64,000 bases of DNA. Origin: a phage. Position numbers and translations under genes: made by a program. The DNA is taken from sequence record PZ496580.1. One strand, 5' to 3'. Shown here in pieces: positions 28,894-29,505 of the stretch. Positions within the stretch are counted from its first letter, which is position 1, and each line of letters starts with the position of its first letter. The notes under the pieces are model-generated. The model made no database searches, had not been told where the DNA came from, and was given only the letters and a program-made list of their open reading frames with translations.

Positions 28894-29096
28894 TTACATT
28901 TAGGGCAATGCGGTTCTTTAATATAATACCCGTCTGTCTTTGGAACACTAACAGGAGCGGTTTTTATATTGTATTCAGTGAAACAACGAAAACAAGTTAC
29001 GTTTTCTACAGACTGACGTTTCACCCAATCACCGGAATATAGATCATTTTTATTTGTCATATTCAACCACCACAATATTGATATCTGGAGTAGCAA
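28866..29096 (-). CDS. hypothetical zinc-ribbon protein (76 aa)
   Basis: CFRCF...CPKCKC. Confidence 0.4.
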   Translation of the reverse strand: MLLQISILWWLNMTNKNDLYSGDWVKRQSVENVTCFRCFTEYNIKTAPVSVPKTDGYYIKEPHCPKCKCRLYWSHL

Positions 29097-29505
29097 TATT
29101 AATGATCTCTTCTACACATTCCCACTCAAGGCCACCGATACCGCAACCGATTTTAGGAATATAGAAAGGCTGTATAGCACCTTCAAAAACATCATTGAGA
29201 GTCTCAAATCCTTTCAGGATAGCACCATATTCAGCATTTGGACCCGGTCGGAATTGGGTATAGAGATTCACCCCGCACCAGTTATAACCATTAACTTGAT
29301 GCGTCCAGACACTAAACCCACCCAGCTTTTCTACCTTACCGCGAGAAGTTTGCTTGTCAATTTCTAACGCTTGCGGGAACTCTTTCGCGATATCCGCAGC
29401 AATACCAGCGCCCATAGTATGAAAACAATTACAACCATGAATTAAATGACCGTTTCCTTGTTTAAACAGGGCGATGAGATCGCCCTTTACAGTATCAATA
29501 ATCAT
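29050..29505 (-). CDS. macrodomain protein, TARG1/OARD1-like (putative ADP-ribosyl hydrolase)
   Basis: KGDLIAL...HLIHGCNCFHTMGAGIAADIAKEFP matches the TARG1-type signature (KGDLF...HC....MGAGIA); about 150 aa; ATG at 29505. Confidence 0.55.
   Translation of the reverse strand: MIIDTVKGDLIALFKQGNGHLIHGCNCFHTMGAGIAADIAKEFPQALEIDKQTSRGKVEKLGGFSVWTHQVNGYNWCGVNLYTQFRPGPNAEYGAILKGFETLNDVFEGAIQPFYIPKIGCGIGGLEWECVEEIINIATPDINIVVVEYDK

Follow-up and report, generated by a model that had tools for sequence, protein, structure and literature searches.

A stand-alone Gln-type macrodomain gene in a Krischvirus genome, ortholog of T4 tk.4 (adfM) with a probable role against DarTG2

The tk-vs region of the window

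The DNA analysed here (the window) is the whole stretch of 64,000 nucleotides of the phage record PZ496580.1. Over the 3 kb around the gene described below it shares 97–98% identity with 58 phages of the RB49-like T-even group (Krischvirus), Brandy, JK32 and W115 among them, and its source is assigned by this comparison to an RB49-like T-even phage of that genus. From gp45 through dmd all the genes lie on the minus strand, together with replication and nucleotide-metabolism genes, an arrangement that matches the pre-replicative region of T4. The order found in the window is rI, tk, a membrane ORF, two small zinc-binding ORFs, the macrodomain gene, vs, a gene for an SLT-domain protein (vs.1) and the gene for RegB. 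The order in T4 (rI, rI.1, tk, tk.1–tk.3, tk.4, vs, vs.1, regB) is the same as in the window and its relatives.

A sequence-only reading of this DNA had pointed to an ORF at 29050–29505 carrying a motif that begins with KGDL. The ORF was confirmed, the quoted motif is present (aa 7–39 of the translation, whose N-terminus is MIIDTVKGDLIALFKQGNGHLIHGCNCFHTMGAGIAADI) and the match to macrodomains goes far beyond chance. The gene starts 15 nt downstream of the stop codon of vs, which is located at 29521–29523. The features that are referred to throughout the text are listed below.

29050..29505, minus strand: macrodomain gene (assigned as T4 tk.4 / adfM ortholog), an ORF of 151 aa with ATG start and TAA stop
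29514..29517, minus strand: Shine-Dalgarno sequence GAGG, 8 nt 5' of the macrodomain ATG, as read from the sequence
29398..29439, minus strand: aa 23–36, HGCNCFHTMGAGIA, first ADP-ribose-binding/catalytic loop, placed by alignments
29356..29358, minus strand: codon of Asp50, invariant in the close family and D/E in the wider phage family
29254..29268, minus strand: aa 80–84, NLYTQ, placed by HMMER and MAFFT alignments
29128..29157, minus strand: aa 117–126, PKIGCGIGGL, second (diphosphate-binding) glycine-rich loop, placed by alignments

Some other elements of the region are worth describing. Between tk and the macrodomain gene there are two small Cys-rich ORFs (28651–28893 and 28866–29096, both on the minus strand), the second of which runs into the end of the macrodomain ORF. 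In Pfam they match PF23895 and PF23903, two families named "Phage zinc binding domain", and they are placed like tk.1–tk.3 of T4. Within the first codons of vs there is a near-consensus sigma-70-like promoter (29843–29871, minus strand; TTGACA-17-TATGAT with an extended -10 TG, 11 of 12 matches), from which transcription into the macrodomain gene could proceed. The scan for promoters and terminators around the gene gave 23 promoter-like sites versus 17 ± 4.4 expected from shuffled sequences, a difference that is not significant overall. Just upstream of the rI region we found an ORF of 715 aa (24844–26991, minus strand) with a weak, sub-threshold match to Ig_3. The 2.4-kb segment that contains it is complete in six of 59 Krischvirus records (Brandy, SSG23, SFHK24, UPWr_E1, G2248 and JK32) and is missing from W115 and Phi1, a distribution that marks this ORF as a variable accessory gene. 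A Gp38-type tail-fibre adhesin gene (22423–23208, minus strand; PF05268, E = 2e-70) is also found amid the minus-strand early-region genes, far from those of the long tail fibre; in W115 the distance between gp37 and the Gp38-type adhesin gene is ca. 100 kb.

Fold, class and active site of the protein

The protein scores above the gathering threshold of the Pfam family Macro (PF01661; 28.1 bits versus a cutoff of 22, E = 2.1e-6, profile positions 1–118) and matches PHROG 335 with E = 2.5e-62. The macrodomain had been called TARG1-like from its motif, and the structure prediction bears this out. The AlphaFold2 model, for which a 77-sequence alignment was the input, has a pLDDT of 96.1 and a pTM of 0.90, and displays a three-layer alpha/beta/alpha arrangement with both glycine-rich ADP-ribose-binding loops (MGAG and GCGIGG) conserved. 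When the model was compared with the PDB by Foldseek, 197 macrodomain matches were obtained at E<=1e-3, the best of them being TARG1 (E = 8e-11, TM 0.78/0.84), and the top 15 were all TARG1, Poa1p or DarG (from Thermus aquaticus and Mycobacterium tuberculosis). Sequence searches of the PDB led to the same proteins: the single sequence had DarG of M. tuberculosis as its best match (5m3i, E = 9e-8), and the family profile retrieved most strongly BT1257, SCO6735, TARG1, DarG and Poa1p, with E values from 1e-15 to 1e-12. Since TARG1, DarG, Poa1p, BT1257 and SCO6735 came out as the nearest relatives in the profile and structure searches, both the sequence and the model place the protein as a stand-alone, single-domain macrodomain of the ALC1/TARG1-like class, and not of the MacroD, PARG or viral Mac1 types.

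A common class with DarG had also been proposed, and it was recovered by NCBIfam and PADLOC, in both of which the DarG macrodomain was the sole match (E = 2.9e-13 and 1.5e-14). This is a domain-level resemblance: the DarG model NF048014 was matched with 49.8 bits versus an equivalog cutoff of 250, and only over positions 2–141 of 338, i.e., its N-terminal macrodomain. Neither net charge nor pI was informative as a proxy for DNA binding, the charge being -7 (pI 5.0) in the window protein versus -6 in the DNA-active AdfM of phage PhiKZ.

The residues of the putative active site are strongly conserved. In the first loop G24, N26, C27, M31, G34 and A36 are invariant in the close-family alignment and H23 is kept in 75 of its 77 sequences. 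By position, H23 corresponds to H23 of Poa1p and H24 of SCO6735, N26 to N23 of PhiKZ AdfM and N27 of SCO6735, and T30 to S30 of Poa1p. Asp50 has no counterpart in TARG1. Further along the chain, the NLYTQ segment contains an N-x-Y-T-Q motif in which N80 and Y82 are invariant and T83 and Gln84 are each kept in 76 of the 77 close homologs. The catalytic lysine of TARG1 (K84) and DarG (K80) falls at Gln84 in the alignments, as does the essential Gln85 of SCO6735, while in the second loop the position of TARG1 Asp125 is taken by Gly, as in DarG. A catalytic lysine, which had been put forward as a check on the TARG1/DarG assignment, is thus absent. With Gln in nearly all of the close homologs, its absence is a trait of the family and not a lesion of this particular gene. 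The same Gln is found in Tk.4 of T4 and, within the sequence NMIGQH, in BT1257 and SCO6735.

Neither does the missing lysine refute activity, because SCO6735 has the same Gln, requires it, and cleaves thymidine-linked ADP-ribose on DNA. The replacement of its Gln85 by Ala or Glu (Q85A and Q85E) inactivates the enzyme, and the wild type clears ssDNA efficiently of thymidine-linked ADP-ribose and can rescue cells from DarT (PMC9411070). By analogy, a Gln-type enzyme of the TARG1/DarG-like class can perform the DarG reaction without lysine. The catalytic-lysine test for TARG1/DarG-like macrodomains would then give a false negative for a large Gln-type phage family.

The conservation of the site bears as well on a non-catalytic role, by which the protein would act on DarT2 directly, as a binding inhibitor, or would sequester molecules derived from ADP-ribose, such as immune signals. 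For catalytically dead versions of SCO6735 (Q85A), DarG (K80A) and TARG1 (K84A), inhibition of DarT in vitro has been reported in all three cases, most strongly for SCO6735 (PMC9411070), and macrodomains can be ADP-ribose readers. However, the putative catalytic residues (N26, H23, T83 and Q84) and both glycine-rich loops are conserved over 77–144 homologs, which favours an enzyme, and the C-terminal domain by which DarG binds DarT is missing from this protein of 151 aa. We consider a non-catalytic function very unlikely.

Orthology with T4 Tk.4 and the proposed role

The protein is 44% identical to Tk.4 of T4 over its full length (E = 5e-45), has the same length and is encoded in the equivalent slot, between the tk cluster and vs. 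Both proteins have the motifs HGCNCFHTMG.G.A and NLYTQ, and in a neighbour-joining tree of 150 sequences (built without bootstrap) they fall into the same clade of 20 leaves, 18 of which come from a tk/vs context. On account of the full-length identity, the synteny and the shared clade, we assign the gene as the Krischvirus ortholog of tk.4. It appears to be the only member of the family in this lineage, judging by the complete genome of W115 (97% identical), which has a single copy.

In T4 the function of this gene has been approached genetically. A transposon-insertion screen (HIDEN-SEQ) of a T4 library on E. coli expressing DarTG2 gave tk.4 as the sole significant hit, and its loss in a clean knockout sensitised the phage to DarTG2, for which the gene was named adfM (bioRxiv 10.1101/2025.11.20.689424). 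The authors of that preprint suggest that T4 AdfM removes ADP-ribose from DNA enzymatically, their evidence being genetic. The possibility that a phage macrodomain counters DarTG had been raised for the window from the sequence, and the phenotype of this syntenic ortholog lends it support. The phenotype itself is that of T4, a Tequatrovirus, and 56% of the residues differ between its protein and that of the Krischvirus, so that the transfer of function at 44% identity is plausible, not certain.

We therefore put forward, as the probable main role of the window protein, the removal of the thymidine-linked ADP-ribose made by DarT2 on phage DNA, by a Gln-type mechanism like that of SCO6735. The gene would be expressed with the pre-replicative genes of the minus strand. 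DarT2 puts ADP-ribose on thymidine in single-stranded DNA, blocking replication; the macrodomain cleft of the phage enzyme would bind this ADP-ribose and the bond between ribose and thymine would be hydrolysed, giving free ADP-ribose and restored DNA. The replicating phage genome would in this way be protected from the toxin-antitoxin defence DarTG2 of the host. The chemistry is expected to be that of SCO6735 and not the Lys-based one of TARG1 and DarG, with the Gln placing the distal ribose or the transition state and an activated water doing the chemistry.

The near-complete conservation of N26, H23 and Q84 supports the enzymatic reading, and the Asn equivalent to N26 matters in PhiKZ AdfM (PMC13309987). 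Other observations count against the proposed role. The nearest biochemically characterised relative, Adpp of the Vibrio phage Gary, is a phosphatase with the same core residues (33% identity); the first loop of the active site resembles that of Poa1p as well; neither the DNA-positioning lysines of SCO6735 (K34 and K89) nor its longer mobile loop is conserved; and the sole phage macrodomain with in vitro de-ADP-ribosylation of DNA, PhiKZ AdfM, is of the Lys type.

A different target had been contemplated as well, namely the tuning of ADP-ribosyltransferases of the phage itself. In this case the protein would reverse or tune the modification of proteins (or RNA) by enzymes of the Alt/ModA/ModB type. 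Such enzymes do exist in the closely related genome of W115, which has ModB and two Alt-like transferases (PF03496). Besides, Glu/Asp-linked ADP-ribose on proteins is a further substrate of TARG1 and SCO6735 (PMC9411070), as is uracil-ADP-ribose in RNA for TARG1-like enzymes. However, the transferase genes are tens of kilobases away, outside the window, and the T4 gene is dispensable unless DarTG2 is present. The known target of the T4 transferases is arginine, and to our knowledge no member of the ALC1/TARG1-like class cleaves arginine-linked ADP-ribose. This part of the earlier proposal thus has little support, and we hold it to be very improbable.

Counter-defence genes of this kind were already described in 2025–2026, and the one in the window, although real, is not a new kind. 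What it adds is a likely anti-DarTG2 role for a gene that in most Krischvirus records is annotated as "hypothetical protein" or "phosphatase", an assignment that would help to predict which hosts therapeutic T-even-like coliphages can infect. A second gene of W115, located beside that of DNA ligase and outside the span of the window (L173:566-1045, minus strand), codes for a protein of the Gp30.3 family (PF08010, E = 1e-38). In the literature Gp30.3 is identified as AdfN, an anti-DarTG1 factor of the NADAR type. Because W115 has this ortholog besides the macrodomain gene, the lineage appears to carry the same two anti-DarT genes as T4, AdfM and AdfN.

Copies of the macrodomain gene with >=95% identity in the protein occur in 58 phage records, and homologs were detected by tblastn in 2,735 of 50,697. 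In rV5-like coliphages (ca. 138 kb) there are copies that are 67–70% identical to the window protein and are nested inside the T-even clade (the IMG/VR contigs of 84 and 139 kb at L007:4920-5459 and L008:5001-5462, and the records of naswa and EduardKellenberger). Their nesting in this clade, at an identity above the 44% of T4, points to a horizontal exchange of the gene between Krischvirus-like and Vequintavirus-like phages.

The Gln-type macrodomain with the HG[CA]NC motif is also present in cells, with 508 confirmed hits in species-representative genomes. Marine Proteobacteria, Desulfobacterota and Bacteroidota account for most of the best 80 of these, which are often on megabase-scale contigs. 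Around these 80 there was no recurrent partner beyond lineage-specific housekeeping genes, and genes of NARP1 (see below) were seen in one or two loci only. DarT2 had no match in 165 viral and these 80 cellular loci, searched with a single DarT2 of Pseudomonas aeruginosa by which a distant DarT could be missed. By their gene context the cellular Gln-type homologs are classed as orphan stand-alone genes, like that of SCO6735, and not as members of classical toxin-antitoxin pairs.

Relation to Adpp and to other known macrodomains

Some homologs in the phage-wide search adjoin genes annotated as ribose-phosphate pyrophosphokinase and NAMPT. Operons of this type, Adps-macrodomain-Namat (NARP1-AP), were identified in unrelated phages: vB_AbaM_P1 of Acinetobacter (L005:4001-4474), Dax of Vibrio (L006:4004-4480) and Gary of Vibrio (L170:2501-2977). 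In the three of them RNA ligase genes flank the operon and the start codon of the macrodomain gene overlaps the stop codon of the preceding gene. The gene pair Adps and Namat is NARP1, and the macrodomain of Gary, Adpp, converts ADPR-1''-phosphate to ADP-ribose, by which it lets NARP1 overcome the NAD+ depletion caused by a RES-domain protein (aRES) (bioRxiv 10.64898/2026.01.28.702374). Gary Adpp shares 94% identity with Dax gp176, 35% with T4 Tk.4 and 33% with the window protein (E = 8e-22), and like the latter it belongs to PHROG 335.

To compare the contexts, 144 non-redundant viral homologs with flanking sequence were classified: 22 have a T-even context, 23 are adjacent to NARP1 genes, four have these genes further away and 95 are in other contexts. 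Every context group has a common core consisting of H23, N26, C27, M31, G34, A36, D/E50, N80, Y82, T83, Q84, P117, G120, G122 and G125. Only positions 29 (H versus C), 37 (G/A versus P) and 123 (I versus L) track the T-even versus the NARP1 context, which may be mere phylogeny. Position 33 (Ala versus Lys/Arg) was tried as a discriminator and discarded, with Ser in ten, Ala in six, Arg in four and Lys in three of the NARP1-adjacent members. In the family tree (neighbour-joining, no bootstrap) the NARP1-adjacent members do not form one clade and are scattered over 14 small ones.

These data bear directly on whether the window protein could be mainly an ADPR-1''-phosphate phosphatase, similar to Adpp or Poa1p, yielding ADP-ribose from a substrate that would originate in the NAD+ phosphorolysis by aRES or in the removal of 2'-phosphate from RNA. 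It shares a Gln-type phage family with the biochemically proven Gary Adpp, the core residues are identical in the 22 T-even-context and the 23 NARP1-adjacent members, the latter are dispersed over the tree, and H23 and S30 of Poa1p correspond to H23 and T30 here. On the other hand, the use of Adpp is to feed Adps and Namat, between whose genes it lies in Gary, and the Krischvirus lineage has neither: tblastn gave no Adps or Namat in either the window or the complete W115 genome (best E>=0.65), so that an Adpp would have nothing to feed. In addition, the gene sits in the conserved tk-vs slot of T-even phages with no NARP1 operon, and the phenotype of its T4 ortholog is specific to DarTG2. A mainly phosphatase function is in our opinion unlikely.

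A broader reading joins both activities. T-even AdfM and NARP1 Adpp might be one family with one dual-purpose Gln-type active site, cutting whatever sits on C1'' of ADP-ribose, be it thymine in DNA or phosphate; the shared core residues make this possible, and we offer it tentatively. If it were true, one small protein would counter both DarTG2 and the NAD+ phosphorolysis of the RES type, depending on its partner genes, and the window protein would be a generalist "eraser" of 1''-ADP-ribose instead of a dedicated mimic of DarG. As T4 AdfM and Gary Adpp have different reported activities within one family and the same core active site, substrate specificity is directly testable.

Turning to the other known macrodomains, the first active-site loop aligns with that of yeast Poa1p, an ADPR-1''-P phosphatase and one of the structural matches (LIHSCNC..S.GGGIA versus LIHGCNC..T.GAGIA in the window protein; the H23/S30 mapping was taken from PDB mutant chains), whereas the remainder of the protein is divergent (TM ca. 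0.70, rmsd ca. 4.6 Å). Human TARG1 (OARD1) shares the motifs KGDL and MGAGIA, but its Lys84/Asp125 dyad is replaced by Gln and Gly, and its Ser35 by Asn. The macrodomains of DarG from M. tuberculosis and T. aquaticus resemble the window protein in the fold, in the first-loop Asn and in the GxGxGG of the second loop; in contrast, the segment NFPTKK of DarG (PTK, with K80 in T. aquaticus) corresponds to NLYTQF here, and the window protein has neither the catalytic Lys nor the C-terminal DarT-binding domain. No DarT gene lies beside the window gene either, its neighbours being vs and a small zinc-binding ORF.

Parallels for the active site are SCO6735 of Streptomyces coelicolor and BT1257, two macrodomains that likewise stand alone, are ALC1-like and have Gln in place of the catalytic Lys, with His and Asn in the first loop. 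They headed the profile matches to the PDB, at E values of about 1e-15 to 1e-14, yet they are only ca. 23–24% identical to the window protein. The counterparts of Q84, H23 and N26 in SCO6735 are Q85, H24 and N27, as expected for a member of the Gln type. The likeness does not extend to the DNA-positioning lysines: the position of K34 is Ala33 in the window protein (Ala in 70 of 77), and in the loop that holds K89 in SCO6735 position 86 is variable and the loop is ca. 5–6 residues shorter. Val25 of SCO6735 is Gly24 here.

Among phage proteins, gp104 of PhiKZ was independently named AdfM and removes ADP-ribose in vitro from an oligonucleotide modified by DarT2 (Cell Rep 2026, PMC13309987). Like the window protein it is a stand-alone phage macrodomain of the same PHROG, and it acts against DarTG2, but it is of the Lys type (FPTK), resembles DarG, has 26% identity and falls outside the Gln-type phage clade. 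By their sequences, then, the "AdfM" of T4, to which the Krischvirus protein is assigned, and the "AdfM" of PhiKZ belong to different subfamilies.
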